Below are positions 11,038-34,092 of a stretch of 34,588 bases of DNA, one piece after another (position 1 is the first letter of the stretch; each line of letters opens with the position of its first letter). Origin of the DNA: an uncultured Anaerolineales bacterium (GTDB lineage Bacteria; Chloroflexota; Anaerolineae; UBA1429); assembly GCA_964624695.1 (NCBI GenBank), contig CAZUZB010000014.1:1-34588 (forward strand), in the 5' to 3' direction. The notes beneath the pieces are model-generated. The model had not been told where the DNA came from and searched no databases. It worked only from the letters and a program-made list of their open reading frames with translations. Made by a program: the position numbers and the translations under genes.

Positions 11038-11049
11038 AGGCTAGGGATA

Positions 11050-11087
11050 GCATGACGGCACTTCCACGAAGGGAGGTGCCGTCATGC
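11050..11087 (+). terminator. Strong stem-loop 13 nt after the SBP stop (attenuator/mRNA-stabilising hairpin; no U-tract)
   Basis: GCATGACGGCAC (11050-11061) pairs perfectly with GTGCCGTCATGC (11076-11087). Four more pairs are possible inside, leaving a 6-nt loop. Confidence 0.5.
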
Positions 11088-11528
11088 CATGACCCTATCG
11101 GCGGAGGAGGCAGCGGCGGGCAACCCCCGCCAAGACGGTTGGGCCTTGCGCCCAGATCGGGATCAGTGCACGAGCCAGTCTTCGTTGGCGATCGGGCGCC
11201 CTGGTGTGCCGCGGCTGGAATCGCTTCGATTTGTGAGAGCGGGAGTCGGAGTCTGCAAAGGTCGGGGGCCGTTGATCCGAGTTGGGCACCAGGGAGCAGA
11301 CTCGGGTCACCATCGGCTGCGGGGCACAAGAGGCAGCCGCAGCTCCGTTGCTCGCCTGCTCCATGAGGTGGGGGCGAGGAAAGACCGTTCATCCGGGCCG
11401 GCGTGATCCGGCGGGCCCTTGCTCACGGGATCCTTGGAAGGCTTGGGCATGCCGTTCTCGGATCCTCTGTCCCGCCACTAGGAGGCTTGCTCGGGCTGTA
11501 TGGATTCGCTCAAAGGGGGGACGACGGC

Positions 11529-12488
11529 ATGAACACGCACGAAGGCAGCGTGATCCTGGGGATGTGGCGCCGTGTCGACATTCATTGGTCTACGCTGCGG
11601 CGAGTTGCTCGCCGTCATAACCTGAACTCCAACATCCTGTACGTTCTGCCGGCCCTGATCGTTTATCTGCTGTACGTCGCCTGGCCTATCATCTCAGTGT
11701 TCCGCGACAGCCTCTACCGTTGGGACGGCATCAGTCGGGATAAGGTCTTTCTGGGCTTTGCCAACTATCGCGAGCTGCTATTCGCCGATCGCTTTTTCCG
11801 AAATGCGATTACAAACAATGTGCTATGGTTTTTTATTACTGTTGGTCTATGCATTTTGTTTGGTTTCATTCTGGCCTACGTTCTTAATATGTCTATTCGC
11901 TTTCGTAATATCTATCGCACCCTGATCTTCTTGCCTTTGACTGCTTCGGGCGTCGTCGTAAGCTTGGCTTGGAACAATATCTACAACTTTCAGTTTGGCA
12001 TCGTGAACGTTAGCTTGCGCAGCATAGGCCTAGGCGGTTTGGTCCAGGATTGGCTCGGTAATCCCAGCCTTGCGCTATATGCGATCCTTGTCGCGGCAGT
12101 CTGGCGCGGAACAGGCTCACACGTCATCATGTACCTGGCCGCCTTGCAGGGCATCTCGACGGAGATGCTAGAGGCAGCTATGATCGACGGGGCCAACGGC
12201 CTGCAACGCATGTGGTACATCGCGATCCCGCTCGTGCGTGGGACGACCGCGGCGCTCCTGATACTCGGAGCCATCGGTGCGGTGGGCGCTTTCGATCTGG
12301 TGTACCTGATGACTCGTGGCGGCCCCTATCATGCAACTGAGCTGATTGCTTTGCGGGTTTTCGACCTAGCCTTTGTTACGCACCGCACTGGCTACGCCTC
12401 CGCGCTCTCGGTTTTACTAGTTCTCATTGCTGGCGTTATCACTGTTTTCCAGGTGCTCCGCTACCGGGGAGCACCTGGGGCGCAGTAG
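11529..12488 (+). CDS. ABC sugar transporter permease (MalF/UgpA-like, BPD_transp_1)
   Basis: ORF 11403..12488. I prefer the ATG at 11529, preceded by AAGGGGGG, giving ~319 aa. Six hydrophobic segments are present. The EAA-type loop reads EAAMIDGANGLQRMWYIAIPLVRG. Confidence 0.88.
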   Translation: MNTHEGSVILGMWRRVDIHWSTLRRVARRHNLNSNILYVLPALIVYLLYVAWPIISVFRDSLYRWDGISRDKVFLGFANYRELLFADRFFRNAITNNVLWFFITVGLCILFGFILAYVLNMSIRFRNIYRTLIFLPLTASGVVVSLAWNNIYNFQFGIVNVSLRSIGLGGLVQDWLGNPSLALYAILVAAVWRGTGSHVIMYLAALQGISTEMLEAAMIDGANGLQRMWYIAIPLVRGTTAALLILGAIGAVGAFDLVYLMTRGGPYHATELIALRVFDLAFVTHRTGYASALSVLLVLIAGVITVFQVLRYRGAPGAQ

Positions 12489-12502
12489 GGAGGAGCAAGC
12501 AC

Positions 12503-13342
12503 ATGCCTACTCTTTGGGCCAGGCCGATCCAGCGCGTCATTCTGCATTCAATGCTGATGGTGGTCTCTTTTCTATTTCTGTTTCCCATGCTCTACATGGT
12601 CAGCACAGCGGTCAAGGCCCCGGGAGAGACCATGATTAACCCGGGCATCATTCCTCACTCCGTTGACTTGGCCAAGTTCGTCGACGTATGGCAGCGCGCC
12701 GGCGTGGTAAGGCTGGGGCTGAATAGCCTCTTTATCACTGTTAGTACTGTGGGGTTGGTTTTGTTGCTAGGCTCGCTCGCAGCATTTGCTTTTTCTCGTT
12801 TGAACTTTTTTGGCAAAAGTATCCTCCAAGTTCTTTTCTTAGTGAGTCTTATGATACCATTTGCTTCTGTAATTGTTCCTTTGTATCAACTTAATCGTTC
12901 ATTATCCACCATGAACACATATATGGCGGTGATCGGTCCATATGTTGCATTCGGTCTTCCTTTTGCTATTCTGTTTCTTCGCTTTTACTTTGATACTCTG
13001 CCACAGGAATTGGAGGAGGCAGCACGCATTGATGGTGCGCCGACGTTCATCATCTACTGGCGCGTGCTCCTACCGTTGACCACGCCTGCCTTGGCGACCG
13101 TCGCGATCTTTCAGGCCTTGGGCGCTTGGAACGAGTTCCTGCTAGCTTTGCTGTTTCTGACTAGGTCGGATCTTCGTACGCTCCCTACGGGGGCAGTCCA
13201 TTTTCAGATGATGTTCGGACGACAGTTTGAGCACATGTGTGCCCTGCTTCTGATTATTTCGTTTCCCGTAGTGGTGCTGTTTCTAGTGCTGCAGAAGCAG
13301 TTTGTGGCGGGTCTCACTACAGGTGCGATCAAGGGCAGCTAG
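12503..13342 (+). CDS. ABC sugar transporter permease (MalG/UgpE-like)
   Basis: GGGAGGAG lies 7 nt upstream, and the start is 14 nt after the previous stop. The EAA loop reads EEAARIDGAPTFIIYWRVLLPL. Hydrophobic throughout. Confidence 0.9.
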   Translation: MPTLWARPIQRVILHSMLMVVSFLFLFPMLYMVSTAVKAPGETMINPGIIPHSVDLAKFVDVWQRAGVVRLGLNSLFITVSTVGLVLLLGSLAAFAFSRLNFFGKSILQVLFLVSLMIPFASVIVPLYQLNRSLSTMNTYMAVIGPYVAFGLPFAILFLRFYFDTLPQELEEAARIDGAPTFIIYWRVLLPLTTPALATVAIFQALGAWNEFLLALLFLTRSDLRTLPTGAVHFQMMFGRQFEHMCALLLIISFPVVVLFLVLQKQFVAGLTTGAIKGS

Positions 13343-17081: not shown

Positions 17082-18173
17082 ATGGATACAGCCCGAGAGC
17101 GCTTCATGCGGACTCTGGACTTCATGGTCAGCGACCCTCCGTTCGTACGATTTGGTGCCGAGTACGTGTGGGAGGAAACGATCGAGCTCTGGCGGCAACA
17201 GGGCTACGACGGCCGACCGCTTGAGCAGGTCTTCGGAACCGATACCCTCATCGATCTGGGCGTCAACTACGGTCCGGCACCCGAGTTCTCGCGCCAAGTA
17301 CTGGCCGAGGACGTTCGCACTGTCACATACGTCAATCACGAGGGCATCGTCGTGCGTGAGTTCAAGGGTCACCACATGGCCAGCATGCCCCAGTTCGTCC
17401 GCTTCCCAGTTGAGACGGAAGCGGACTTCGCGCGCTTGGCGGGCGAGCGCTTGGGCCTGAATGTGGAGGAACGCTTCTCTGATGAGTGGAAGGGAAAGCT
17501 TCCCGCCTGGAAAGACTCGGAGCAACCCCGCCGTTGCTGGGCCAACCGCTGGGGCGGCTTTTTCGGCGCTCTCCGAAACCTCATGGGTCTCGAGGGGTTG
17601 TGCGTCGCAATCTATGAGCAGCCCCGGCTCGTCGAGAGGATGATGGCCGAGCGCGCCGAGGCGATCATCACCGTTACCGACGAGGTTCTACGCCACAGCG
17701 ATTTCGAGACCTTCTGGTTCTGGGAAGACATGGCCTACAACCATGGCTCGCTGGTTGATCCTCGCCTTTTCCGTCGGCTGGCTCTCCCTCACTATCGGCG
17801 AGTGTGTGACTGGCTACGCTCTCGTGGGATCCGGCATATCTGGCTCGACAGCGACGGTGACATTCGTGAGCTGATCCCCGTCTGGCTCGAAGGTGGAATC
17901 AACGGCCTATGGCCCTTCGAGGTACAGGCGGGCATGGACGTAGTTCAGGTGCGTCGGGAGTATGGCCACGACCTGGCACTGGCGGGCGGAATCGACAAGC
18001 GCGCGGTTGCCCAAGGGGGAGGGGCGATGCGAAGCGAAGTCGAGCGCGTGATGCCTCTCGTGGCCGATGGCGGCTACCTTCCCGAGCTGGACCATGGGGT
18101 GCCGCCCGATATCTCATGGCCAAACTACCGTGAGTATATGGGGTACCTACTGCAACGCTTGCAGCGTGGCTAG
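17082..18173 (+). CDS. URO-D family protein (paralogue 2)
   Basis: AAGGAGG lies 6 nt upstream. The motifs RERFMRTLDF..., WFWEDMAYNHG, IWLDSDGDIRELIP, GGIDKRA and LDHGVPPDISW are shared with the neighbouring paralogue. Confidence 0.85.
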   Translation: MDTARERFMRTLDFMVSDPPFVRFGAEYVWEETIELWRQQGYDGRPLEQVFGTDTLIDLGVNYGPAPEFSRQVLAEDVRTVTYVNHEGIVVREFKGHHMASMPQFVRFPVETEADFARLAGERLGLNVEERFSDEWKGKLPAWKDSEQPRRCWANRWGGFFGALRNLMGLEGLCVAIYEQPRLVERMMAERAEAIITVTDEVLRHSDFETFWFWEDMAYNHGSLVDPRLFRRLALPHYRRVCDWLRSRGIRHIWLDSDGDIRELIPVWLEGGINGLWPFEVQAGMDVVQVRREYGHDLALAGGIDKRAVAQGGGAMRSEVERVMPLVADGGYLPELDHGVPPDISWPNYREYMGYLLQRLQRG

Positions 18174-18196
18174 GCTCAAGTACGGAGGGAATCCAG

Positions 18197-19318
18197 GTGT
18201 CAGCAATCAACAACCGGGAGCGCTTCCTGCGGATGCTAGACTTTTCCCCTGTTGACCGCGGCTTCAACCACGAGTTGCCCTTGTGGGTGCAGACCTACGA
18301 TCGTTGGCACACCGAGGGCATGCCGGACGACGTCCACATCGGTGATCTGATGGCGGGCTGCGCGTTTTTTGGTGTCGATCGGGTGGGTTATCTGCCGCTG
18401 AGAGTGACGGAGATGATGCCTCCTTTCAGGGTCGAGGTGCTAGAAGAAGACGAGCGCTACCGCGTCATGCGGTTCGCCGACGGGCATATCACGCGTGCAC
18501 TCAAGGAGGGAGAGTCGGGGGGCATGCGCATGTCCATGGACCAGTACCTCTCCTTCCCGGTCGTCGATCGCGATAGCTGGCAGGATGTCCGACGCCGCTA
18601 CAACCCGCGCTCTCCGGCCCGCTACCCCGAGTGGTGGGAGGACCTCAAGCGCTGTCTAGCGGGGCGCGACTATCCCCTTTACTTGACCCGTAATGGTTGT
18701 TTTGGTCTTTATTCCTTTCTAAGACGTTTGATGGGGACAGAGCTTGCCTGCACAATCTTCTATGACGATCAGGCTCTTGCCGATGAAATACTCGACTACC
18801 TGACAGACTATCTCATCGAGCTCATCCACCCCGTGCTAGACCAAGTAGAGGTTGACGTCTTCAACTACTTTGAGGATTTTGCCTACAACGCCGGCCCGCT
18901 GATTGGGCCCACCATCTTCCGCCGGTTTCTGTTTGCCAGATACCGCCGGATCAACGATCTCTTACGTGCCCATGGTGTGCGACACATATTGCTGGACAGT
19001 GATGGGAACTCAAGTGTTCTGCTCCCACTGATGATCGAGGCCGGGATCACTTGTCACTGGCCTCTGGAGCGGACTACGATGGACCCTCTCGCCGTGAGAG
19101 CAGAGTACGGGCATGATCTGGCCCTCATAGGAGGAATCGACAAGCGCGCCCTAGCTCGAGGAAGAAAGGCGATCACAGCGGAGCTATACCGAATCATACC
19201 CCCTCTGATCGAGGATGGTGGTTACATCCCCACCCTCGATCACGCCGTCCCTCCGGACGTATCGTACGACAACTGGATGTACTACATGGAGTTGAAGCTC
19301 AGGTTACTAGGTAGCTAG
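18197..19318 (+). CDS. URO-D family protein (paralogue 3, tandem duplicate of the previous gene)
   Basis: GTG start with GGAGGG 7 nt upstream. Motifs NNRERFLRMLDF, YFEDFAYNAG, ILLDSDGNSSVLLP, GGIDKRA and LDHAVPPDVSY are colinear with 17082..18173. Confidence 0.85.
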   Translation: MSAINNRERFLRMLDFSPVDRGFNHELPLWVQTYDRWHTEGMPDDVHIGDLMAGCAFFGVDRVGYLPLRVTEMMPPFRVEVLEEDERYRVMRFADGHITRALKEGESGGMRMSMDQYLSFPVVDRDSWQDVRRRYNPRSPARYPEWWEDLKRCLAGRDYPLYLTRNGCFGLYSFLRRLMGTELACTIFYDDQALADEILDYLTDYLIELIHPVLDQVEVDVFNYFEDFAYNAGPLIGPTIFRRFLFARYRRINDLLRAHGVRHILLDSDGNSSVLLPLMIEAGITCHWPLERTTMDPLAVRAEYGHDLALIGGIDKRALARGRKAITAELYRIIPPLIEDGGYIPTLDHAVPPDVSYDNWMYYMELKLRLLGS

Positions 19319-22439: not shown

Positions 22440-23714
22440 CTACCATTTGAAAACGTCACCGGAGAGCAGGGCCTCCTCCTTTCGCAGTGTGGTTGGGTAC
22501 AACGGATGATCGGGTAGTAGCGTAGCGAAAACGTCCTCGCTCCGATGTGCCTGAGCACCCGGTAGCGCAAAGAAGGTGCGGACGTCCTCCTCTAGCTTTT
22601 GGCTGAAGGTCAGTGGATCGGTTTGGTCGTAAAGGCGCTGCAGCTGATCGGCTACCGCTGCGCTCATCGTGCCCGAGGCCAGCAGACGCTGGAAGGGAGT
22701 ACGGGGCCTATCCCAGTGACGTCGCACCCGCTGGGTCTCACGGTCGTAGGTCTTGTGTGTCAGCCGCATGACCGGCTGAAAGAGGTTATGGTAGATGCGC
22801 AGCTTCTCGTAGAAGGCGTTGAGAGCCCGGGCCTGCTCGGCCGAGTCCAGGCGATCGTGACCAATCCAGCCTCGGATCAAAGCCCCGTTGCGATGCTCGA
22901 CGAAACGGTTGTCGTTCTTTTGCCAGGGGCGGCTGCGTGAGAGATGGGCGCCCGCGAAGAGTTCTCCAAAGAACTGCACGAGATGCGCATTGAAGAACTC
23001 ACTGCCATTATCCGGATGAATCTCTAGCACCGAGAAGGGCAAACGCTGGGCACACCGCTGAAACCCGTCCTGCATCACCAGATAGCTGCGTCCCAGCACC
23101 GCAGCCATCTCGCTCCAGCCGCTGGCGACGTCCACCAGATGCAAGGTATGCACATACTCTCCGCCCGCACGGCGGCCGCAGTGGTGTACCAAGTCCACCT
23201 CCAGATGCCCAGGGGTGGCGGCATCCCAGGGGATGCGCCCTGCTGGAACCCCCGCCAATAACCCATTGCGCGTGAGCCCAGGACGGCGCTGGCGCCGCGG
23301 CTCGTCCTGTCGGACCCGTTGCAGGATGCGTCGCACGGTCGAGACACTGATGCGCTCCAGTTGCTCCTGCAGGGCCGGCGTTACACGAAGATGCCCGTGT
23401 TGTGCCAGCTTTTCGGCATAGTCCGCCAGGTTTGGCGCCAGCCGCTCGGCGCAGATACCGTCGTAGGCCCGGTAGACGATGCGCACCGCATCGTCTACCT
23501 CAGGGCCGTAGCTGCGACCTCGCCCTTTCCTGCGGCGCTTCCGCTGGCAACTGCCATTCAGGCGTCGGATGATGGTCTTGCGGTCCAGCCGCGTGGTTGT
23601 CTCGAGCGCGTCCAGAATCCGCCCCTTTCCGGTCCGTGAAGCTTTGCGATAGGCTCCTTGCTGCATTCGCAGCACTTTCAGACGTTCTTCCAGGTCCAAC
23701 TTTTCTGTGGCCAT
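22440..23714 (-). CDS. Intact DDE transposase with rve (integrase-core) domain, 424 aa; IS family not assigned (IS481/ISNCY-like)
   Basis: Uninterrupted ORF. It has an N-terminal basic HTH region and catalytic-core motifs HLEVDLVHH, LEIHPDNGSEFFN and RPWQKNDNRFVEHRNGALIR. It is flanked by inverted repeats. Confidence 0.9.
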   Translation of the reverse strand: MATEKLDLEERLKVLRMQQGAYRKASRTGKGRILDALETTTRLDRKTIIRRLNGSCQRKRRRKGRGRSYGPEVDDAVRIVYRAYDGICAERLAPNLADYAEKLAQHGHLRVTPALQEQLERISVSTVRRILQRVRQDEPRRQRRPGLTRNGLLAGVPAGRIPWDAATPGHLEVDLVHHCGRRAGGEYVHTLHLVDVASGWSEMAAVLGRSYLVMQDGFQRCAQRLPFSVLEIHPDNGSEFFNAHLVQFFGELFAGAHLSRSRPWQKNDNRFVEHRNGALIRGWIGHDRLDSAEQARALNAFYEKLRIYHNLFQPVMRLTHKTYDRETQRVRRHWDRPRTPFQRLLASGTMSAAVADQLQRLYDQTDPLTFSQKLEEDVRTFFALPGAQAHRSEDVFATLLPDHPLYPTTLRKEEALLSGDVFKW

Positions 23715-23874: not shown

Positions 23875-24612
23875 ATGTCCGCAGTTGATCCGAAGAGCCC
23901 CCTCCCCTACTACCAACAGATTGCAGATGCTCTACGCGCCGAGATCGAAGCGGGCGTGTCTAGGGGCAACGGTTTTCGCCTGGCATCCGAACACGAGCTC
24001 TGTGAGCGCTTTGGCGTCACGCGGACCACGGTTAGGAGCGCCTTGGATGTACTGGAGCGCGAGGGGCGGATCTACCGCCAGGTCGGCCGCGGCACCTTTG
24101 CGGCTGCCAGGCGTCTTGAGCAGAACGTCACCGAACTGGTCTCGACGACCGAGGATATGCGCCGGCGCGGGCGGAGCATCACGACGCGCGTGCTCTCGCT
24201 TGAGCGCATACCAGCCACGGGAAAGGTCTGCGGTGCGCTAGCCCTCGGTGCCGCGCAAGTGGTCTACGAGTTGACGCGTTTGCGGGAGGCGGACGGTGAG
24301 CCGATCAGCCTCCAGACCTGCTACCTCCCCGCGCAGCTCTGTCCGGGCTTGGAGGAGCATGATCTCAGCGTGTCGCTGTACCGCTTGCTGGAGAGCGAGT
24401 ACAACTTCTACCTATGGACGGCACGAGAGACGCTCAGCGCACGGCGAGCCACGAGCGCGGAAGCCGGATTGCTTGGGATGCCCGTACGGGACGCGGTGCT
24501 CTACGCCGAGCGCGTGACCTACACCGCCGACGATACGCCGGTAGAGTACCTCGAGGCCGTGTGGCGCGGCGATCGGTATAGCTTCCAGATCAACCTGTCG
24601 CGACCGCAGTAG
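23875..24612 (+). CDS. GntR-family transcriptional regulator, HutC subfamily (winged HTH + UTRA effector domain)
   Basis: ORF 23740..24612. I prefer the ATG at 23875, because the upstream part runs into the IS end. HTH: PLPYYQQIADALRAEIEAG...LASEHELCERFGVTRTTVRSALDVLEREGRIYRQVGRGTFAA. A UTRA-like C-terminal domain follows (...EYLEAVWRGDRYSFQ). Confidence 0.9.
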   Translation: MSAVDPKSPLPYYQQIADALRAEIEAGVSRGNGFRLASEHELCERFGVTRTTVRSALDVLEREGRIYRQVGRGTFAAARRLEQNVTELVSTTEDMRRRGRSITTRVLSLERIPATGKVCGALALGAAQVVYELTRLREADGEPISLQTCYLPAQLCPGLEEHDLSVSLYRLLESEYNFYLWTARETLSARRATSAEAGLLGMPVRDAVLYAERVTYTADDTPVEYLEAVWRGDRYSFQINLSRPQ

Positions 24613-24913: not shown

Positions 24914-25990
24914 ATGCTAACCGCGACGCATCACCTGTTGCTGGCCGAGCAGCGTCAGGCCGTATCCGAGGCCGTGGGCCTGCCGGTACTGCTGACCGCG
25001 TACCCCGGCCTGATCCGCCACGACGCCCTGTTGGAGGCCATCGGCCCCGCGGCCGGGCGAACCTGCGGCGCGGTCTGGGTGGAAGGGGCCGGAGTCTGCG
25101 CCTTTGGGCGATCGGCGGCCGAGCTACAGATGGTTGCGACGACCTATAGGGCGACAGCGGTCCGCGGCGAAGGCGCCGACCAACTGAGACGGCGCCTTGA
25201 TAGAGTCGCTGAGGGAGCGGGGGCAGGTGAGCTCTTTGCCGGCGAGGTGGTCCTGATCACCGGCGCGGCATCGGGCATCGGCAGGGCCTGCGTCGATGCC
25301 TTTCTCGAGCGCGGGGCGGCGGTCGTGGGCCTGGACATCAACCCGGCCATCGTCGATCTCTCTGAAGCACCGGCATACTTGGGTCTGGCATGTGACGCCG
25401 CCGACGAGGCGGCGGTAGTGGACGCGCTAGGCCAGGTAGTGCAGACGTTTGGCGGGCTGGATATGCTGGTGCTGAACGCCGGCGTGTTCCCGGCAGGTTG
25501 TGACATCGCCGCATTGGAGCTGGCCGAGTGGCGTCGTGTCATGCGCATCAACCTGGATGCCGGGCTGATCATGCTGCGCCACGCGCATCCCCTGCTCAAG
25601 CTCGCGCCCCGGGGCGGTCGGGTGGCGGTGAACGGCTCGCGCAACGTCCTGGCGCCGGGGCCGGGGGCGGCGGCCTACTCCTGCTCCAAGGCGGCCCTGA
25701 CGCAACTGGCGCGTGTCGCGGCCCTGGAGTGGGGGACGGACGGCATTCGCGTGAACGTCTTTCACGCGCACGGCGTCTTTGACACGGGCATCTGGACCGA
25801 CGAGGTGCTGGCGGCTCGCGCGCGTCACTATGGGAAGACGGTGGAGGAGTACAAGCGTAACAACCTTCTCAAGACGGAAGTGACCAGTCGCGACGTGGCC
25901 GAGCTGGCCGCGGCGATGTGCGGGCCGCTGTTCGCCAAGACGACCGGCGCCCAGGTCCCCATCGACGGCGGCAGCGACCGCGTGGTGTAG
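24914..25990 (+). CDS. Short-chain dehydrogenase/reductase with ~105-aa N-terminal extension resembling the tail of a class II aldolase/adducin domain (truncated YuxG/RhaD-dehydrogenase type)
   Basis: AAGGAG lies 7 nt upstream. The SDR motifs are present: VVLITGAASGIGRA, LVLNAG, YSCSKAAL. The N-terminal segment ...GAVWVEGAGVCAFGRSAAELQMVATTY resembles the ...HG..TWG...E.. end of class II aldolase domains. The Zn-binding part of that domain is absent. Confidence 0.85.
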   Translation: MLTATHHLLLAEQRQAVSEAVGLPVLLTAYPGLIRHDALLEAIGPAAGRTCGAVWVEGAGVCAFGRSAAELQMVATTYRATAVRGEGADQLRRRLDRVAEGAGAGELFAGEVVLITGAASGIGRACVDAFLERGAAVVGLDINPAIVDLSEAPAYLGLACDAADEAAVVDALGQVVQTFGGLDMLVLNAGVFPAGCDIAALELAEWRRVMRINLDAGLIMLRHAHPLLKLAPRGGRVAVNGSRNVLAPGPGAAAYSCSKAALTQLARVAALEWGTDGIRVNVFHAHGVFDTGIWTDEVLAARARHYGKTVEEYKRNNLLKTEVTSRDVAELAAAMCGPLFAKTTGAQVPIDGGSDRVV

Positions 25991-26043: not shown

Positions 26044-27027
26044 ATGCCGAGTGAGCTGCGCTTTTCCGCCAATATCAACACCTTTAACGCCTGTGCCGAC
26101 CGCTACGTCCTATCGGGCTATGGCGAGCGGCTGTCCACAGAGCAGCTGATCGAGGCTGCCACCAAGGTGGAGGGCCTATCCGGCGTGGAGGTCGTGGGAT
26201 TTTGGCACGTGAACGACGACAACGTCGTCCAGGTGAACCGACAGATCCGCGACGCCGGGCTGGAGGTGACCTGCGTGACGCCGGACATCTGGGCCTCGGC
26301 CAAGTGGGGTCGGGGCTCCTTTGCCTCCAACGACCCCAAGATCCGCCGGGCGGCCATTGACGAGGTAAAGCGCTCCATGGAGTGGGCGCAGCAGATGGAT
26401 TGCCAGGTGGTCGACCTCTGGTTCGGCCAGGACGGCTACGACTATCCTATGCAGGCCGACTATCTCTCGGCCTGGGATCGCCTGATCGAAGGGACCATCG
26501 AGTGCGCCGAGCATCTGCCCGGCGTCAACCTGGTGATCGAATACAAGCCCAAGGAGCCGCGCACCCACTGCTTTATTGGTACCGTGGGCAAGACACTGCT
26601 GCTCCTGGAAAAGGTGAACAAGCCCAACGTCGGCGCCATGATCGACGTAGGACACGCGCTGATGGCCTACGAGGTCACGGCCGAATCGGCCTCGCTGCTG
26701 CACTATTTCGGCAACAAGCTGTTCTACATGCACTTTAACGACAACTGGCGCCTTTGGGACGACGACATGACGGCTGGCTCGATCCACACCATCGAGCTGT
26801 TGGAACTGCTCTACTGGCTGGACCGGCTGGGCTACGATGGCTGGTACGCCCTGGACATCTTTCCCTACCGTGAGGACGGCATCGTGGCCGCCACCGAGAG
26901 CATCCGCTGGATCCAGGCCTTGCACGGCCTGCTGGACAAGATCGGCCGACCGCGCATCGCGGCGCTGATCGCTGAGAGTGACGCCATGGGGGCCTCGCGG
27001 GCCATCCGCGAGGCGCTCCTGGGATAA
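26044..27027 (+). CDS. Xylose-isomerase-like TIM-barrel sugar isomerase/epimerase (metal-dependent aldose-ketose isomerase type)
   Basis: ORF 25918..27027. The ATG at 26044 is preceded by AGGAGG. Motifs: LVIEYKPKEPRTH (compare EPKPKEP of xylose isomerase), IDVGHALMA, YMHFNDN. Confidence 0.88.
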   Translation: MPSELRFSANINTFNACADRYVLSGYGERLSTEQLIEAATKVEGLSGVEVVGFWHVNDDNVVQVNRQIRDAGLEVTCVTPDIWASAKWGRGSFASNDPKIRRAAIDEVKRSMEWAQQMDCQVVDLWFGQDGYDYPMQADYLSAWDRLIEGTIECAEHLPGVNLVIEYKPKEPRTHCFIGTVGKTLLLLEKVNKPNVGAMIDVGHALMAYEVTAESASLLHYFGNKLFYMHFNDNWRLWDDDMTAGSIHTIELLELLYWLDRLGYDGWYALDIFPYREDGIVAATESIRWIQALHGLLDKIGRPRIAALIAESDAMGASRAIREALLG

Positions 27028-27065: not shown

Positions 27066-28415
27066 GTGACCAAGCAACTCTATGATCCCAACATGTTCAA
27101 CTATATGTGGGAGAGCCTGGACCAGGATCGCTTTGTCGTCGGCACTTATTATGTGGAGGACATCAAAGAGGGCGTCGACTTCATCGACCATCTGGCGCAG
27201 ATCCAGCGCCTGGCCCTGGAGGGCTCGACCGCCAGCTGGATGGAGATCAAGGAGGAGACGCCAGAGGTGCGGGAGCGGCTCTCCAGCAAGATTCTGAACT
27301 ATCTGGAGATCCCGGCCGACAAGGGGACCAAGAAGGCGATCGTGCAGATGGCGTTCCCCATCGCCGCCTGGGAGGAGAACGTCAACGTTCCCATGTTGCT
27401 GCTTTCCATCATGGGAAACATCCCCGCCTTTCCAACCAACATGCGCATGCTGGACCTCTACGTTCCCCCCAGCGTGGCGGCCAAGTTCCAGGGACCAAAG
27501 TACGGCATCGAGGGCCTCCGCGCCAAGCTAGGCGTCCATGGCCGGCCACTGACGCTGCAGATCATCAAGCCCAAGATGGGCATGACGCCGGAGGAGACGG
27601 CAGCGCAGGTGTACCAGAGCGCCTTGGGCGGGGTGGACCTGGTCAAGGACGACGAGATGTGCAGCGAGCTTTCCAACTGCTCGTTCGAGGCGCGCTTGGA
27701 GGCGGTGCTCGAGGCGCTGGAAAAAGCCGAGCGCGAAACTGGCCAGAAGACGCTGTACATGGTGAGCATCACCGATGAGGTGGATCGGGTGGCGGACAAG
27801 TGTCGGCGGGCCGTCGAGCTGGGGGCCACGGGGCTGCTGTTTGCCTACTCGGCCGGCCTCTCGGCGCTCAAAGTGATCGCCGACGATCCCGCCATCGACG
27901 CGCCGATCCTGCTGCATGTCTCGCATATGCTGGCACTGCTGCCGCGCATGAACTTCCCCGTGCTCTCCAAGCTCTGCCGCCTGTGTGGCGCCGACATGAT
28001 GCTGACCCCCTCCATGTGGTCCAGCATCCCGGTGGCCTCGGTGGAAGAGTCCTTGCGGGTGACCCAGACACTGGTGGCGCCGTTCTACCATATCAAGAAG
28101 ACCTGGCCCATGCCCGCCGCGGGCATGTATCCCGGTTTGATCGACGTGCTGATCCAGGAACACGGCGTCGACTTTATCGTGCCCGCGGGCGGCGGCATGC
28201 TGGGCCATCCCATGGGCTACAAAGCCGGTGCCATGGCCTGGCGGCAGGCCATCGACGCGGTGCTGGCCGGCAAGACGCTACAGGAGGCAGCAGCCGAATA
28301 CCCCGAGTTCCGGGCGGCCGCCGAGCTGTGGGGCATCCGCGAGCGTCCCAAGACGGTGTGGGGCTACTCGGGGCCGGACTATCATCCGGGCTTTGCGCCG
28401 AAGAATCTGACTTAG
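27066..28415 (+). CDS. RuBisCO large-subunit-like protein (form IV RLP), not a carboxylase
   Basis: GTG start. The sequence is colinear with RbcL: ALEGSTASW (compare AAESSTGTW), MGNIPAF (Asn123), GRPLTLQIIKPKMGMT (Lys175/177), GGVDLVKDDEM (Lys201, Asp203, Glu204), PAGGGMLGHPMG (Gly403/404). The CO2-fixation residues are replaced: LHVSHMLA for HIHRAMHA, CGADMMLTPS for GGDHIHSGT, no Lys334, PAAGMY for ASGGIH. Confidence 0.9.
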   Translation: MTKQLYDPNMFNYMWESLDQDRFVVGTYYVEDIKEGVDFIDHLAQIQRLALEGSTASWMEIKEETPEVRERLSSKILNYLEIPADKGTKKAIVQMAFPIAAWEENVNVPMLLLSIMGNIPAFPTNMRMLDLYVPPSVAAKFQGPKYGIEGLRAKLGVHGRPLTLQIIKPKMGMTPEETAAQVYQSALGGVDLVKDDEMCSELSNCSFEARLEAVLEALEKAERETGQKTLYMVSITDEVDRVADKCRRAVELGATGLLFAYSAGLSALKVIADDPAIDAPILLHVSHMLALLPRMNFPVLSKLCRLCGADMMLTPSMWSSIPVASVEESLRVTQTLVAPFYHIKKTWPMPAAGMYPGLIDVLIQEHGVDFIVPAGGGMLGHPMGYKAGAMAWRQAIDAVLAGKTLQEAAAEYPEFRAAAELWGIRERPKTVWGYSGPDYHPGFAPKNLT

Positions 28416-28512: not shown

Positions 28513-29484
28513 ATGCCACAGAGCAACCCGCCGTTGCTAGAGCTGTACCGCACCATGCTGACCATCCGGCGCTTTGAGGAGCGCTGCAACCATCTGTTCA
28601 TGCAGGGGCGGATCCCGTCCACGCTGCACCTGTACATCGGCCAGGAGGCCGTGGCCACAGGCGTGTGCGCGCACCTGAAAGATACGGATTATGTGTTGAG
28701 CACGCATCGCCCCCACGGACACGCTATCGCCAAGGGGGTGACGCCACGCAGCATCATGGCCGAGCTGTTCGCCAAGGCCACCGGTTGCTGCAAAGGCAAG
28801 GGCGGCTCTATGCATGTCGGCGACATGCGCGTGGGGATGCCGCCGGCCATCGCTATTGTGGGCGGCAACGCGCCCATCGCCTGCGGCATGGCCCTGGCCC
28901 AGAAGCGTTTGGGCAACGGCGGCGTGACGGTGTCCTCTTTCGGCGACGGGGCGGCCAACGAGGGCGCGGTGCACGAGGCCCTGAACATGGCCGCCATCTG
29001 GGATCTGCCGGCGATCTTTGTCTGCGAGAACAATCTCTACGCGGCCTCGACGGCCTTTGCCACGGCCTTCAAGATCGACGATGTGGCCGCCAGAGCCGCC
29101 GCCTACGGGATGCCCGGCATCGTCGTGGATGGCAACGACGTGTTGGCAGTCCACGAAGCGGCCGCCGCGGCCATCGCGCGCGCGCGGGAGGGCGGCGGGC
29201 CGACGCTGATGGAGTGCAAGACCTATCGCCTGTGCGGCCACTCGCGGAGCGACCCCCTGACCTATCGAACCAAAGAGGAGGAGGCGCGCTGGCTGGAGCG
29301 GGAGCCCATCGGGCGGCTGGCGGCGCAGATGCGCGAGCAGGACCTGGTCACAGAGGAGCGCCTGCGAAAGATCGAGGAGGTGGTGGTCGCCGTCATCGAC
29401 GACGCGGTGGCCTATGCCGAGGCCAGCCCGGATCCCCTGCCCAGCGACGCGCTGCAGCACGTGTTCTACGGACAGGAGGCGTGA
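28513..29484 (+). CDS. TPP-dependent 2-oxoacid/acetoin dehydrogenase E1 component, alpha subunit
   Basis: GGAGGGAG lies upstream. TPP motif: FGDGAANEGAVHEALNMAAIWDLPAIFVCENNLYA. Also YRLCGHSRSDP and LYIGQEA. Confidence 0.92.
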   Translation: MPQSNPPLLELYRTMLTIRRFEERCNHLFMQGRIPSTLHLYIGQEAVATGVCAHLKDTDYVLSTHRPHGHAIAKGVTPRSIMAELFAKATGCCKGKGGSMHVGDMRVGMPPAIAIVGGNAPIACGMALAQKRLGNGGVTVSSFGDGAANEGAVHEALNMAAIWDLPAIFVCENNLYAASTAFATAFKIDDVAARAAAYGMPGIVVDGNDVLAVHEAAAAAIARAREGGGPTLMECKTYRLCGHSRSDPLTYRTKEEEARWLEREPIGRLAAQMREQDLVTEERLRKIEEVVVAVIDDAVAYAEASPDPLPSDALQHVFYGQEA

Positions 29485-29486
29485 GC

Positions 29487-30500
29487 ATGGCCAAGATGAG
29501 CATCGCCGAGGCGCTGCGGCAGGCCATTCGCGAGGAGATGGTCCGCGATCCGCGCGTCTTCTGTGTGGGCGAGGATATCGGCGTGGAGGGCGGCTTTGGC
29601 GGGGCCTTTACCGTGACCCTGGGACTATCAGAAGAGTTCGGCCACGAGCGCATCCTGGACACACCCATCTCCGAGATCGGCATCGCCGGCGTGGCCATCG
29701 GGGCGGCCATGGCCGGCCTGCGGCCCATCGCCGACGTGCAGTATGGCGATTTTCTGTTCTGCATGATGGATCAACTGGTGAACCAGGCAGCCAAGATGAC
29801 CTACATGTCGGGCGGGACGGTGAGCGTCCCCATGGTCATGCGGGCGCCGGTGGGCTCGACCCGACGCGGCGCCCAGCACGCCCAGAGCCTGGAGGCCTTT
29901 TTCACCCACGTGCCCGGCCTGAAGGTGGTAGCCCCGGCCACCGCCTACGATGCCAAAGGCCTGCTGAAGAGCGCCGTGCGCGATGACAACCCGGTCCTGG
30001 TGTTTGAGCACAAGCTGCTGTACGGCTCCAAGGGGCCGCGTTCGGAGGCCGGAGCGCTGAGCCCGGTGGGCGAGGTGCCGGACGAGGAGTACCTGGTGCC
30101 CATCGGCAAGGGCATCGTCCGGCGCGAGGGCAGCGACGTGACCATCGTCGGCAAGCTCTTGACGCTGTACCGCGCGTTGGGCGCGGCGGAAAAGCTGGCG
30201 GCCGAGGGCATCAGCGCCGAGGTGATCGACCCGCGCACCCTGGTGCCGCTGGACAGGGAGCTGATCTTGGAGTCGGTGCGCAAGACCGGCCGGCTGGTGA
30301 TCGTCGAGGAGGACAACCTGACCGGCGGGTGGGCCGCCGACATCGCCGCCATCGTGGCGGAGGAGGCTTTCTTCTACCTGGACGCCCCGATCGTGCGCGT
30401 CTCGGCGCCGGACACGCCCGCGCCCTTTGCGCCGGTGATGGAGGCCTTTTACGTACCTTCGGAGGAGCGGGTGATCGAGGCCGTCCGGTCGACGCTGTAG
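29487..30500 (+). CDS. 2-oxoacid/acetoin dehydrogenase E1 component, beta subunit
   Basis: The ATG is 2 nt after the alpha stop, suggesting translational coupling. The upstream 274 codons of ORF 28665..30500 are an out-of-frame artefact. Motifs: VFCVGEDIG..GGAF, DTPISE, VQYGDF, PVLVFEHKLLY. Confidence 0.92.
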   Translation: MAKMSIAEALRQAIREEMVRDPRVFCVGEDIGVEGGFGGAFTVTLGLSEEFGHERILDTPISEIGIAGVAIGAAMAGLRPIADVQYGDFLFCMMDQLVNQAAKMTYMSGGTVSVPMVMRAPVGSTRRGAQHAQSLEAFFTHVPGLKVVAPATAYDAKGLLKSAVRDDNPVLVFEHKLLYGSKGPRSEAGALSPVGEVPDEEYLVPIGKGIVRREGSDVTIVGKLLTLYRALGAAEKLAAEGISAEVIDPRTLVPLDRELILESVRKTGRLVIVEEDNLTGGWAADIAAIVAEEAFFYLDAPIVRVSAPDTPAPFAPVMEAFYVPSEERVIEAVRSTL

Positions 30501-30552: not shown

Positions 30553-31713
30553 ATGGCTCATCCGGTACTGGTGCCGCCTTTGGGGCAGACGGTGGACACC
30601 GTGACCATCGTGACCTGGTACAAGCGAGAGGGCGAGGCGGTCCGTGAGGGCGAGCCGCTCTACGCCATCGAGACCGACAAGGCCGTTCTGGACATCGAGG
30701 CCCAAGCGTCTGGCGTGCTGCGGGGCGTGACCGCCACCGAGGGCGACGAGGTGGAGGTGTTGCGCGCCATCGCAGAGATCGCCACCGCGGCAGAGGGCGG
30801 GACGGTCGGAACGACGGCTGAGGCGGCCGACGGCGCCCCCGAAGTCGCCCCATCGGAGAGTAGTGTTGCGGCGAGGGCGGTCACGCCGGTGCGCCGTGGT
30901 CCGCGTCAGTTCGTCTCGCCGCGCGCTCGCCGCCTGGCGGAGGCCGAGGGCGTTTCGCTGGAGGAGGTGGCGGGCAGCGGCCCAGAGGGCGCCGTCGTCG
31001 AGCGCGATGTGCGCGCATGGCTGGAGCGGCGCTCCAGCGCCCAGGAGACGCCGCCTCGCGAGCTCGCGGCGCCCGCGGCGGCGGTCAGCGAGGTCGTTGT
31101 CGCGCAGATGGGTGCTAAGCTCGCCGGCGCGCCGTTGGTCACCTTGGACGTCGAGGCCGATGCCAGCGCCTTGACGGGCCTGCGGGCCCAGTTGGCGGCC
31201 GCCGAGGTGGAGATAGCCGACACCGATCTCTGGCTGTGCGTGCTGGGGCGGGCTCTGCGCGACCAGCCGGCGCTGAACGCCTCATTGGAGGGGGACGTGC
31301 TGCGTCGTTGGCCACGGGTTCAGGTTGGCCTGGTAGTGGATACCGGCGACGGCCTGGCCGTGCCCGTGGTGCGCGACGTGGATCAGAAGCGGCTGGCGCA
31401 GCTAGCGCGGGAGACCAGGGAGCTGCGGGCGCGAGCGCACGAAGGCGCGCTCACGGCGGAGGATCTGAAAGGCGCGACCTTTACCCTGGCGGACCTGGGG
31501 GCTGCGGGCATCGACACCTTCACCCCGTTCCTGGACGCGCCCACCACAGCGATGATGGGGGTGGGGCGGATCCGAAAGGGCGGGGGAGCCGCGGATGCCA
31601 CGGTGTGGCTCTCGCTCAGCTACGACCGACGCCTGGTCGATGCTGGACGGGCCTCGCGCTTCTTGCGGCAGGTGGCACAGCTCATCGAGCAGCCCTACCG
31701 TCTGCTGGCGTGA
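30553..31713 (+). CDS. Dihydrolipoamide acyltransferase (E2)-like protein with lipoyl and subunit-binding domains but substituted catalytic residues
   Basis: Lipoyl domain with LYAIETDKAVLDIEA. PSBD: FVSPRARRLAEAEGVSLEEVAGSGPEGAVVERDV. The catalytic-domain fold is recognisable, but GGTFT(I/L)SN reads GATFTLAD (Ala codon 31489-31491) and DHRxxDG reads DRRLVDA (Arg codon 31627-31629). The alternative GTG start at 30526 is less likely than the ATG at 30553. Confidence 0.88.
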   Translation: MAHPVLVPPLGQTVDTVTIVTWYKREGEAVREGEPLYAIETDKAVLDIEAQASGVLRGVTATEGDEVEVLRAIAEIATAAEGGTVGTTAEAADGAPEVAPSESSVAARAVTPVRRGPRQFVSPRARRLAEAEGVSLEEVAGSGPEGAVVERDVRAWLERRSSAQETPPRELAAPAAAVSEVVVAQMGAKLAGAPLVTLDVEADASALTGLRAQLAAAEVEIADTDLWLCVLGRALRDQPALNASLEGDVLRRWPRVQVGLVVDTGDGLAVPVVRDVDQKRLAQLARETRELRARAHEGALTAEDLKGATFTLADLGAAGIDTFTPFLDAPTTAMMGVGRIRKGGGAADATVWLSLSYDRRLVDAGRASRFLRQVAQLIEQPYRLLA

Positions 31714-31738: not shown

Positions 31739-33232
31739 ATGCCGAAGACCATCTCTTGTCTGGCGATGGACATCGGCGCGGAGAGCGGCCGCGCCATGGT
31801 GGGAAGGTTCGACGGGGAGTGGCTGACCCTGTCGGAGGCGTATCGCTTCGCCAACGGCTCGGTGCGCCTGCCGGACGGGCTGCACTGGGACCTGTTGCGG
31901 ATCTGGGCCGAGGTGCAGCACAGCCTGGCGCTGGTGGCCCATGAAGCGGGCGAAGCTCTCCGGAGCGTCGGCATCGACACCTGGGGCGTGGACTATGGCC
32001 TGCTGGATCGCACCGGCGCACTGATCGCCAACCCGTTCCATTACCGCGATGGTCGGACCGATGGCATGCTGGACGAGGCCGCCCGGCACATGTCGCACGC
32101 CGAGCTGTACCAGCGCACGGGCATGCCTCCATCCCAGCTCAACACCCTCTACCAGCTGCTATCCATGGTGGTGGGGCGGGACCCCGTCCTGGAGATCGCC
32201 GAGACCTTTTTGATGACGCCGGACTTGCTGCATTACTGGCTGACCGGCGTCAAGGGCTGCGAGTTCACCATCGCGACGTCGACGCAGTTGTACAGCCCCA
32301 GCCTCGACGGCTGGGACCCGGCCATCCTGGAGGCCATGGGCATTCCGGCGCGCCTCTTCCCGGCGCTGGTCCGGCCGGGAACGCGCTTGGGCGGCCTGCT
32401 GCCCTACGTCGCGCAGGGGTTGGACCTAGAGGGGCAGGCGCTCTCGGTCATCGCGCCGGCCTGCCATGACACCGCCTCGGCGGTGGCGGCGGTTCCCATG
32501 CGCGGCCCGGGCTGCGCCTGGATCAGCTCGGGCACCTGGTCCGTCGTGGGGACCGAGCTGGAGGCCCCCATCATCGATGCCGCGACGCAGGCCTACCACC
32601 TGGCCAACGAGGGGGGCGCGAGCGACACCTTCTTCCTCTGTCAAAACGTGATGGGCCTGTGGCTGGTGCAGCAATGCCGCCAGGCCTGGGCCGGTCAGGG
32701 CCAGGAGATGTCCTACACTCAACTGACGCAGCTTGCTCGCGAGGCCAAGCCGTTCCAGGCGGTCATCGATCCAGATGATGGCGCATTCTTCAAGCCGGGC
32801 GACATGCCCGCGCGGATCCAGGCCTATTGTCGGCGAACCGGCCAGACAGTCCTCGAGACGCCGGGGGGCATCATCCGCTGCGTGCTGGAGAGTCTGGCCC
32901 TCAAGTACCGCTGGGCGCTGGAGCGGCTGGACGAGGTGGTGGGGGGACGGCTGGAGCCGGTGCACCTGGTGGGCGGCGGGACGCAGAACACCCCGCTCAA
33001 CCAGCTGACGGCGGACGCAACCGGACGGCTGGTGCTGGCCGGTCCCATCGAGGCCACGGCCCTGGGCAACGTGCTGATGCAGCTCTTGGCGTTGGGGGAG
33101 ATCGGATCGCTGCAGGAGGGGCGCGAGCTCCTGCACCGCTCCTTTGCCCTGGAGGAGTACCTGCCCCGAGGCGGGGCCGAGGAGGCGTGGGAGCGCGGAT
33201 ACGCGCGGCTGTGCGAGCTTGTGTCGAGTTGA
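31739..33232 (+). CDS. FGGY-family carbohydrate kinase, rhamnulokinase (RhaB)-like
   Basis: The ATG at 31739 is preceded by AAGGGGGG; the upstream part of ORF 31595.. overlaps the E2 gene. Motifs: LAMDIGAESGRAMVG, IDTWGVDYGLLD, FHYRDGRT, QLNTLYQL, LMTPDLLHYWLTG, VHLVGGGTQN. Confidence 0.9.
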   Translation: MPKTISCLAMDIGAESGRAMVGRFDGEWLTLSEAYRFANGSVRLPDGLHWDLLRIWAEVQHSLALVAHEAGEALRSVGIDTWGVDYGLLDRTGALIANPFHYRDGRTDGMLDEAARHMSHAELYQRTGMPPSQLNTLYQLLSMVVGRDPVLEIAETFLMTPDLLHYWLTGVKGCEFTIATSTQLYSPSLDGWDPAILEAMGIPARLFPALVRPGTRLGGLLPYVAQGLDLEGQALSVIAPACHDTASAVAAVPMRGPGCAWISSGTWSVVGTELEAPIIDAATQAYHLANEGGASDTFFLCQNVMGLWLVQQCRQAWAGQGQEMSYTQLTQLAREAKPFQAVIDPDDGAFFKPGDMPARIQAYCRRTGQTVLETPGGIIRCVLESLALKYRWALERLDEVVGGRLEPVHLVGGGTQNTPLNQLTADATGRLVLAGPIEATALGNVLMQLLALGEIGSLQEGRELLHRSFALEEYLPRGGAEEAWERGYARLCELVSS

Positions 33233-33285: not shown

Positions 33286-34092
33286 ATGGACTGGGGCAAG
33301 AAGAATCGTCTATCGCAGCTGCTGCCCGGTGGGCACGCCTACTACCTGCCCATCGACCACGGGTACTTTTTGGGGCCGACCCGCAAGTTGGAGAAGCCAG
33401 GCGAGACCATCGCGCCGCTATTGCTCTACTGCGACGCGCTGTTCGTGACCCGCGGGGTGCTGCGCGCTTGTGTCGAGCCGGTGGGCAGCCTGCCTATCAT
33501 CCTCAGGATCTCGGGCGGTACCAGTATCGTGGGGCCCGACCTGGCCCATGAGGCGCTGACCACGTCCATCGAGGACATCATCCGCGTCAACGCCGCGGCG
33601 GTGGGGGTCTCGGTGTTCATCGGCAGCGAGTATGAGCGCGAAACGCTGCTGAACCTGACGGACGCGGTCAACCAGTGCCAGGACTATGGGATTCCGGTGA
33701 TGGCGGTGACGGCAGTGGGCAAGGAGCTCGAGAAACGTGACGCTCGGTACTTGGCCCTGTGCTGCCGTATCTGCGCCGAGCTGGGCGCCGACGTGGTCAA
33801 AACCTACTGGTCAGAGGATTTCGAGAAGGTGGTCGAGGGCTGCCCGGTGCCAGTGGTGATGGCAGGCGGCCCCAAGTGCGAAACCAACCGCGAGGCATTC
33901 GAGTTCGTCTACGACGGGATGCAGCGAGGGGCGGCGGGCATCAACTTGGGGCGTAACGTCTGGCAGAACCAGAATCCGGTGCCCATGGCCAAGGCGCTGC
34001 GGGCCATCGTCCATGAGGGCGCGGACGTGGACGCGGCGGTCGCGATCTTTGACGACGCCATGCGTGGCGCGGCCAAGGCGCAGGGGCTGTAA
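33286..34092 (+). CDS. Class I (DhnA/LsrF-family) aldolase; closest in my memory to LsrF, 3-hydroxy-2,4-pentadione-5-phosphate thiolase
   Basis: The ATG at 33286 is preceded by AAGGGAG. The first 153 codons of ORF 32827..34092 overlap the kinase gene out of frame. The sequence is colinear with E. coli LsrF as I recall it: DWGKKNRLSQL, IDHGYFLGPT, IAPLL..CDALFVTRGVLR, SIVGP, VSVFIGSEYE, IPVMAVTAVGK, GADVVKTYW (Schiff-base Lys), GCPVPVVMAGGPK, GINLGRNVWQ. Confidence 0.88.
   Translation: MDWGKKNRLSQLLPGGHAYYLPIDHGYFLGPTRKLEKPGETIAPLLLYCDALFVTRGVLRACVEPVGSLPIILRISGGTSIVGPDLAHEALTTSIEDIIRVNAAAVGVSVFIGSEYERETLLNLTDAVNQCQDYGIPVMAVTAVGKELEKRDARYLALCCRICAELGADVVKTYWSEDFEKVVEGCPVPVVMAGGPKCETNREAFEFVYDGMQRGAAGINLGRNVWQNQNPVPMAKALRAIVHEGADVDAAVAIFDDAMRGAAKAQGL

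Follow-up and report, generated by a model that had tools for sequence, protein, structure and literature searches.

A lipoyl-bearing E2 homologue with a degenerate acyltransferase centre in a sugar-related operon of an uncultured Anaerolineales bacterium

The window analysed here, the whole of a 34,588-nucleotide stretch from an uncultured Anaerolineales bacterium (assembly GCA_964624695.1, contig CAZUZB010000014.1), contains an operon in which the genes for the alpha and beta subunits of a pyruvate dehydrogenase (PDH)-like E1 component (E1alpha and E1beta) are directly followed by a gene for a homologue of E2, the lipoyl-bearing acyltransferase component of 2-oxoacid dehydrogenase complexes. 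As judged from sequence comparisons, the lipoyl domain, the one peripheral-subunit-binding domain (PSBD), the CAT-like fold and the C-terminal segment of this protein are under purifying selection, and the active centre and the substrate loops have been released from it. The E2 gene and its parts are listed below, with the basis of each assignment in brackets; omega is the ratio of nonsynonymous (dN) to synonymous (dS) divergence.

30553 to 31713, plus strand: E2 homologue of 386 residues, comprising a lipoyl domain, a single PSBD and a degenerate acyltransferase domain (Pfam; phmmer against PDB)
30553 to 30786, plus strand: lipoyl domain, residues 1–78, with Lys43 (AAG, 30679–30681) in IETDKA (conservation, omega, model pLDDT >90)
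30910 to 31014, plus strand: PSBD, residues 120–154, SPRARRLAEAEGVSLEEVAGSGPEGAVVERDV (Pfam E3_binding, 6.9e-12)
31072 to 31707, plus strand: CAT-fold catalytic or core domain, residues 174–385, fold kept and active centre degenerate (Pfam 2-oxoacid_dh, 1.8e-45)
31489 to 31494, plus strand: Ala313-Asp314 (GCG GAC), replacing the Ser/Thr-Asn of GGTFT(L/I)(S/T)N(L/I)G (alignments, codon check)
31603 to 31710, plus strand: C-terminal 36 residues, a strand and a helix ending in ...QPYRLLA (omega, alignment)
31621 to 31644, plus strand: YDRRLVDA, replacing FDHRLVDG, with Arg359 encoded by CGA at 31627–31629 (alignments, codon check)

The ATG is preceded by GGTGGGGG, and the Pfam Biotin_lipoyl model matches residues 5–76 (1.3e-14), with the lysine placed in the lipoyl-lysine turn. 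The PSBD is recognisable as such and is present in a single copy, against two in most canonical orthologues, and the 2-oxoacid_dh match covers profile positions 8–231 of 232. The first active-site loop reads GATFTLADLG, in which Ala313 (GCG, 31489–31491) stands for the catalytic Ser/Thr and Asp314 for the Asn; in the second motif Arg359 stands for the catalytic His and Ala364 for the Gly, so that neither the Ser/Thr-Asn pair nor the His and Gly of DHRxxDG are retained. The change from CAY to CGA at the His codon amounts to two base changes. When the protein was aligned by phmmer with solved E2 structures, LSLSYDRRLVDA paired with LPLTYDHRLIDG (9y7v) and LSLSFDHRMIDG (3duf), and GATFTLADLGAAG paired with GGTFTITNIGSQG. 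The initial annotation of the gene had proposed both catalytic substitutions together with the Gly-to-Ala change; the PDB and profile alignments put Arg359 at the His and Ala313 at the Ser/Thr position, and the codons are confirmed on the DNA. Its statement that the lipoyl domain, the PSBD and both E1 subunits are intact also stands, the ETDKA, thiamine diphosphate (TPP) and GHS motifs being present and purifying selection normal. An identical protein (P0001) is recorded on six public contigs, and the same active-site substitutions, including an unchanged YDRRLVDA, are found in P0002, an orthologue 65–68% identical to the window E2 and of the kind that the initial annotation had suggested looking for. 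These two observations exclude a sequencing error and, with the PDB alignments and the codon check, rule out a misregister as well. Asp358, Arg360 and Asp363 of the second motif are still present. The substrate loop, nearly invariant in canonical relatives, reads GATFTLADLGAAGIDTFTPFLDAPT in the window E2 and GATMMLADLALLGIDAATALLDEPT in P0002, and the alignment places a 6-residue deletion ahead of the His strand of the window protein.

The changes are not confined to the two motifs. Among the 120 closest database relatives of the E2, 112 are canonical at both the His and the Ser/Thr positions, with FDHRLVDG or a near variant of it in the second motif, so that the substitutions go beyond chance, and columns at least 95% conserved among these 112 were taken as conserved (78 in the catalytic domain, 29 in the lipoyl domain and 16 in the PSBD). 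The window E2 departs from 18 of the 78 catalytic columns and matches all 29 lipoyl and all 16 PSBD columns. P0002 is changed at 27 catalytic columns and at none in the other two domains, and P0023, another degenerate relative, at 22 catalytic, 0 lipoyl and 1 PSBD columns; the corresponding figures are 46, 1 and 0 for the degenerate E2 of locus L003 and 47, 2 and 0 for that of locus L058. The 112 canonical relatives have at most 7 changed catalytic columns out of 78, with a median of 1, so that the window E2, at 18, exceeds the usual number for a canonical bacterial E2 about 18 times. By this column count the decay spans the whole catalytic domain and extends beyond two point changes. The His position is occupied by R, S, P or Q in the various degenerate relatives, and the Thr position by A, L, M, V or I; because the residues vary, the pattern looks like decay and not like a new active site, and neofunctionalisation was rejected on this ground.

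Rates of evolution were compared by normalising the dN of each E2 domain to the E1beta dN of the same genome pair. For the catalytic domain the median ratio was 2.1 over 153 canonical pairs and 8.5 over 10 degenerate pairs, and it reached 16.8 between the window and L065, the metagenomic contig that carries P0002. The medians for canonical and degenerate pairs were 2.3 and 2.5 in the lipoyl domain and 2.9 and 3.5 in the PSBD, so that relative to E1beta the catalytic domain has evolved at about 4–8 times the rate of its canonical orthologues, and the lipoyl domain and PSBD at normal rates. For the window paired with L065, the neighbours of the E2 gene show 87–97% identity and omega of 0.05–0.21, and the E2 proteins 68% identity. 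Omega was 0.17 for the lipoyl domain in this pair and 0.12 between the window and L067, the contig with P0023; it was 0.20 for the PSBD, 0.37 for the catalytic domain (bootstrap confidence interval 0.25–0.52) and 0.06 for the last 36 residues (window and L065). Because they are nearly invariant within the clade of the window, these C-terminal 36 residues are likely to be an oligomerisation element. The Thr-to-Ala change is common to the window, L065 and L067, and the loss of the active site is therefore older than their split; to judge from the omega values, the arm and the dock stayed under constraint after it. A pure pseudogene was considered and rejected, since the reading frame is intact, omega is below 1 in all domains, and the lipoyl domain, PSBD and C-terminus are strongly constrained. 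The dS of the E2 gene between the window and L065 (5595–6770) is 0.58–0.64, against 0.27–0.46 in the flanking genes; this elevation could reflect relaxed selection on codon usage, or an effect of recombination or mutation.

An AlphaFold2 (AF2) model of the protein is confident for the lipoyl domain, PSBD and core, with pLDDT mostly above 90, and its confidence drops only at residues 321–330 and 341–350, which correspond to the degenerate loop and the deletion. The modelled core superposes on solved E2 cores with TM of 0.7–0.84 (Foldseek), a fold that counts as weak evidence because the input alignment consisted mostly of canonical sequences. Given a catalytic domain that is not evolving neutrally and a confidently modelled E2-core fold, a structural role of the domain persists.

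The operon runs in the order GntR/UTRA regulator, short-chain dehydrogenase (SDR), xylose-isomerase-like protein, RuBisCO-like protein (RLP), E1alpha, E1beta, E2, FGGY kinase and LsrF/DeoC-like protein, and its genes other than that of E2 are as follows.

23878 to 24612, plus strand: GntR/UTRA regulator, first gene of the operon (Pfam; same position in related loci)
24914 to 25990, plus strand: SDR with a 100-residue N-terminal extension (Pfam adh_short; NCBIfam NF006196 positions 402–657, 1.5e-125)
26044 to 27027, plus strand: xylose-isomerase-like TIM-barrel protein, a putative sugar isomerase (Pfam AP_endonuc_2, 1.8e-28; weak matches to NCBIfam xylA and RhaI)
27066 to 28415, plus strand: RLP of form IV, MtnW-like (Pfam RuBisCO_large; PDB 2oek, 3.7e-68)
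28513 to 29484, plus strand: E1alpha, 323 residues, with an intact TPP motif and YRLCGHSRSDP loop (Pfam E1_dh, 2e-89)
29487 to 30500, plus strand: E1beta, 337 residues (Pfam Transket_pyr and Transketolase_C; NCBIfam PDH E1beta subfamily, 370 bits, over the cutoff of 321)
31739 to 33232, plus strand: FGGY kinase, rhamnulokinase-like (Pfam FGGY_N and FGGY_C; NCBIfam rhamnulokinase, 441 bits, under the cutoff of 528)
33286 to 34092, plus strand: DeoC/LsrF-like protein of the class I aldolase fold (Pfam DeoC, 9.4e-28; NCBIfam LsrF NF006081, 329 bits, over the cutoff of 297)

E1alpha scores 368 bits with the NCBIfam PDH_E1_alph_y model, under its cutoff of 394, and its nearest solved structure is human PDH E1alpha (2.9e-67); its GDG-x26-NN motif is intact along with the loop. 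None of the 169 columns of E1beta that are invariant in genomes with a canonical E2 is changed in the window. The RLP falls short of the NCBIfam DK-MTP-1-P enolase model (286 bits, under the cutoff of 409). No E3-like gene was found within the 34.6-kb window; the initial annotation had remarked on its absence from the operon, which is true but uninformative.

With the RLP as probe, 64 species-level genome loci were collected, with about 10 kb on each side, nearly all of them from Chloroflexota and mostly from metagenome-assembled genomes of Anaerolineae. Most of the 64 show the core order GntR, isomerase, RLP, E1alpha, E1beta, E2 (where present) and kinase. A canonical E2 with both His and Thr is found in about 23 of them, and a degenerate one in L003 (LTADSAKIG) and L058 (VSADPSALS); two metagenomic contigs with the same operon add the degenerate proteins of L065 (P0002, YDRRLVDA) and L067 (P0023, FDSRLVGV). 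At least 12 loci have no E2: in L007, L008, L009, L041 and L062 the kinase gene begins 25–120 nucleotides after E1beta, and in L018, L024, L045, L050, L052, L059 and L060 unrelated genes follow E1beta. When E1alpha plus E1beta were placed on a neighbour-joining tree, the loci with a degenerate E2 were spread over at least two distinct clades: the window and L065 are sister to the canonical L054, and L003 and L058 lie elsewhere. The absences of E2 fall into at least six lineages, some of them nested among relatives with a canonical E2 (L018 within L022 and L048). This repeated loss of the whole E2 with E1 kept is a pattern missing from the initial annotation. E1alpha retains its TPP motif and YR..GHSRSDP loop in loci with a canonical, a degenerate or no E2, and the 169 E1beta columns show 0–4 changes outside the genomes with a canonical E2; the distant L059 is the exception, with no match to the E1alpha loop and 19 changed E1beta columns. 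Given this constancy in loci of all three kinds, the E1 evidently works, and apparently in the same way, without a catalytic E2 encoded in the operon. Repeated loss of E2 with retention of E1 would therefore point to supply in trans or to dispensability, and no dedicated discharge enzyme is required.

The same distribution bears on the proposal that E1alpha-beta has no need of a lipoyl acceptor at all, acting as a TPP lyase or in a transketolase-like manner with the C2 unit released or transferred, and that the E2 is a functionless relic. The 12 or more orthologous operons with E1 and no E2 speak for it, and L003 encodes, downstream, an Aldedh-family aldehyde dehydrogenase and bacterial microcompartment (BMC) shell genes that could handle a released aldehyde if the enzyme is CoA-acylating. 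However, the lipoyl domain and PSBD remained under purifying selection after the active site was lost (omega 0.12–0.20, a rate like that of canonical proteins and no conserved column changed in the window E2), neither the GHS loop of E1alpha nor the invariant E1beta columns have changed in genomes lacking E2 (L059 excepted), and a fully canonical E2 is still encoded in about 23 of the 64 loci, all of which makes the proposal improbable.

Most canonical E2s of these loci (L011, L025, L029, L035, L037, L042, L053 and most P-sequences of about 440 residues) have two tandem PSBD-like domains. The first, SPRARRLAE...GPEGAIVERDV, is without the usual loop Arg, and the second, TPVARRMAEEAGLDW...GRITRDDV, is of the classical type. 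The first alone is found in every degenerate E2 and in a few short canonical ones. Because the degenerate proteins retain only the first, the comparison suggests separate docks for E1 and E3, of which the second was lost first. A further, related degenerate E2 (P0109; TLANLG and FDQRLVDG) is a lipoyl-bearing orphan at L068 4203–5414, flanked by a CorA gene and by unrelated genes and with no E1 nearby.

Linkage of the DeoC gene does not depend on the state of E2. L003 (11208–16499) and L058 (15956–18199) have a class II aldolase of the RhaD/FucA type and a different SDR in place of the DeoC-family protein and SDR, and L003, with its BMC shell genes and aldehyde dehydrogenase, resembles the fucose/rhamnose microcompartment loci. 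The SDR of the window corresponds to the C-terminal half only of the NCBIfam 'bifunctional aldolase/short-chain dehydrogenase', its extension being without an aldolase domain; a DeoC-type aldolase, encoded at 33286–34092, is present instead of the class II aldolase half. To judge from the gene content, the exchange looks like a swap of ordinary ketose-1-phosphate aldolase modules. This has consequences for the suggestion, made in the initial annotation, that the acyl group carried by the lipoyl arm is discharged to CoA by the LsrF-like protein of the operon, the E2 serving as a dedicated acyl-lipoyl carrier. The DeoC-family protein does score above the NCBIfam LsrF cutoff (329 against 297), and its gene follows the kinase in both the window and L067, each with a degenerate E2. 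However, a DeoC gene, together with that of an SDR, also accompanies canonical E2s (L026, L027) and occurs without an adjacent E2 (L013, L030), and it is absent from L003 and L058, whose E2s are degenerate. The lsr context of LsrK, LsrG and LsrACDB is lacking: the operon has no LsrG-like reading frame, and its kinase is rhamnulokinase-like, with a match of only 1.9e-13 to the model of the autoinducer-2 kinase. LsrF itself carries out a Schiff-base retro-Claisen cleavage of a beta-diketone, not a thioester exchange. With no co-variation between DeoC linkage and the state of E2, discharge by the LsrF-like protein was rejected as very improbable; the broader idea of the initial annotation, that the arm is discharged elsewhere or that the protein is a scaffold or carrier, survives in the pseudo-transferase reading developed below.

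Non-catalytic E2 paralogues with a working lipoyl arm are, to our knowledge, textbook matter only for eukaryotic PDH, in the form of the E3-binding protein (E3BP, or protein X); in bacteria all these tasks are generally ascribed to one E2, acting through a binding domain that its partners share. Literature searches on bacterial non-catalytic E2s gave only work on eukaryotic E3BP and a paper on E. coli mutagenesis. Like E3BP, the window protein derives from E2, has lipoyl and subunit-binding domains and an E2-like core, and lacks the transferase His, as expected of that class; human E3BP (6h60) aligns to it at 2.8e-35, with 'sdsrvvdd' opposite 'ydrrlvda'. The missing His is what tells animal E3BP from E2 (PMC10156792), and the likeness drawn in the initial annotation is in this respect apt. 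Unlike the window E2, human E3BP keeps the Ser/Thr, and the window gene, unlike E3BP, is dispensable in sister lineages. Descent from a common ancestor with eukaryotic E3BP is not borne out, the nearest relatives being canonical E2s of the same Anaerolineae operon at 50–55% identity and the degeneration having taken place in two or more clades of the E1 tree, and on these relationships the window protein is a bacterial analogue of E3BP that evolved independently. The same division of labour would thus have arisen separately in bacteria, with its stages laid out in related genomes as an E2 with two PSBDs, one PSBD, a dead active site and loss of the gene. They amount to a natural experiment on which functions of E2 (arm, dock, scaffold, transferase) are separable and which redundant, and indicate that automatic annotation as 'dihydrolipoamide acetyltransferase' overstates such genes.

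Three bacterial systems offer further comparison. Geobacillus stearothermophilus E2p (3duf, 1b5s) has the same three-domain architecture and fold and is likewise encoded directly after E1alpha and E1beta, but the window E2 differs in the replaced His, Ser/Thr, Asn and Gly and in the 6-residue deletion. OdhA/KGD of Corynebacterium and Mycobacterium uses the lipoyl domains of the E2p AceF/DlaT, which is a bacterial precedent for a carrier and a transferase on separate polypeptides cooperating in trans; there, however, the transferase domain of OdhA/KGD is without a lipoyl arm, whereas in the window the arm sits on a dead transferase domain. AcoC, the E2 of acetoin dehydrogenase systems and a comparator suggested in the initial annotation, resembles the window protein in that it serves a PDH-like E1alpha-beta whose substrate is not an acid, but its model NF011457 (372 positions) matches only residues 1–160 of the window E2, over profile positions 2–128, with 72.8 bits against a cutoff of 307. 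There is no acoL/E3 or acoR gene, and the operon is one of a sugar kinase and an RLP.

The reading that we prefer, with a probability of roughly 0.55, is that the protein is an E2-derived pseudo-acyltransferase, descended from the canonical bacterial E2 of the same operon, that is non-catalytic or weakly catalytic and for which transfer to CoA takes place in trans or is no longer needed. E1alpha-beta would dock on the PSBD and reductively acylate Lys43, and the core domain would still oligomerise. A competent E2 and E3 encoded elsewhere would pass the acyl group to CoA and re-oxidise the arm in trans, either with both E2 proteins in one mixed core or with the lipoyl arm reaching a second core, and any residual transferase activity of the window E2 would be small at most. 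The E2 of the operon would then be partly redundant, and such redundancy would explain the loss of the second PSBD, of the active site and often of the whole gene.

Several points weigh against this. The supplier of E2 and E3 in trans is hypothetical, the analysis having covered 34.6 kb of this genome, and so are mixed cores or lipoyl sharing between complexes. Omega for the catalytic domain depends on the elevated dS of E2 and becomes about 0.6 with the dS of the neighbours, and an AF2 alignment dominated by canonical sequences favours a canonical fold. Furthermore, E. coli E2o and E2p mutants without the His keep 0.5–6% activity (PMC5986005), and Arg359 could act as a hydrogen-bond donor, with Asp358, Arg360 and Asp363 kept, and allow some self-catalysis. 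For two substitutions alone, the claim of the initial annotation that the core probably cannot pass an acyl group to CoA is therefore too strong, although the centre is degenerate well beyond these two residues.

Taken further, the last points would describe a working but slower acyltransferase in which Arg359 takes over from His as hydrogen-bond donor to the tetrahedral oxyanion and the complex runs more slowly, at a rate sufficient for a minor sugar pathway. Among E. coli E2o variants, His375Ala has 2.1%, His375Cys 1.0% and His375Asn 0.5% activity, His375Trp has 60% and Thr323Ala 45%, and the authors favour hydrogen bonding over acid-base catalysis for His375 (PMC5986005). The identity of YDRRLVDA in the window and P0002, with its three retained residues, and the omega of 0.06 over the C-terminal 36 residues also fit such an enzyme. 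Against it stand the altered substrate loop (GATFTLADLGAAGIDTFTPFLDAPT, and differently GATMMLADLALLGIDAATALLDEPT in P0002), the deletion before the His strand, the 18–27 changed columns of 78, the dN raised 7–17 fold relative to E1beta, the S, P or Q at the His position of other degenerate relatives, and the lack of the whole motif in L003 and L058. The published mutants suggest by analogy at most a few per cent of wild-type CoA transfer. Given the wider decay, substantial acyl transfer is unlikely, and residual activity is a live rival to the pseudo-acyltransferase reading; a slower but adequate enzyme is rather unlikely.

The gene set, with isomerase, kinase, aldolase plus SDR, RLP and an E1 of the PDH/acetoin type, suggests deoxy-sugar catabolism. 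By analogy with the chemistry of acetoin dehydrogenase and the RLP of Rhodospirillum rubrum, our guess is that the RLP would shift the carbonyl group within a ketose-1-phosphate, yielding a 1-deoxy-ketose phosphate that E1 in turn would split into an acetyl unit and an aldose phosphate. On a more far-reaching view, the E2 homologue might serve a new sugar pathway as a dedicated adaptor whose lipoyl arm carries the acyl group. The RLP would produce the 1-deoxy-ketose phosphate, or else an alpha-hydroxy-ketone of a related kind; E1 would split this product and place its C2 unit on the lipoyl arm, and something other than the core of this E2 would discharge it. The discharging partner could be a foreign E2 core, in a mixed complex of the E3BP type, or a non-E2 enzyme of the regulon. 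We consider this unlikely.

The upstream genes of the window (ABC transporter, URO-D-like proteins, corrinoid protein) give no hint of the substrate of the operon. A corrinoid (B12-binding) protein and three URO-D-like proteins of the MtaA/MtbA methyltransferase fold are encoded at 358–2458 on the minus strand and 17082–19318 on the plus strand, in the neighbourhood of an ABC transporter of the sugar type (9661–13342), a CN-hydrolase, a DUF6259 protein and an amidohydrolase, and this cluster may be a corrinoid-dependent methyl-transfer or demethylation system. An integrase/transposase of the rve family (22440–23714, minus strand) lies between it and the GntR-led operon, and the two are therefore probably not one functional unit.

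Literature searches for an RLP together with LsrF, rhamnulokinase, FGGY or acetoin dehydrogenase found no description of the RLP-E1 module. The RLP gene is directly followed by those of E1alpha and E1beta in most of the 64 loci, usually with GntR and the xylose-isomerase-like gene before and a rhamnulokinase-like kinase after, and a conserved, uncharacterised RLP-E1alpha-beta module is thereby flagged in the sugar operons of Anaerolineae. Close RLP orthologues (up to 88% identity) without E1 downstream are present in L001, L004, L013, L030 and L057, so that the RLP can occur without an adjacent E1 module; in L030, E1 is encoded past the kinase on the other strand.

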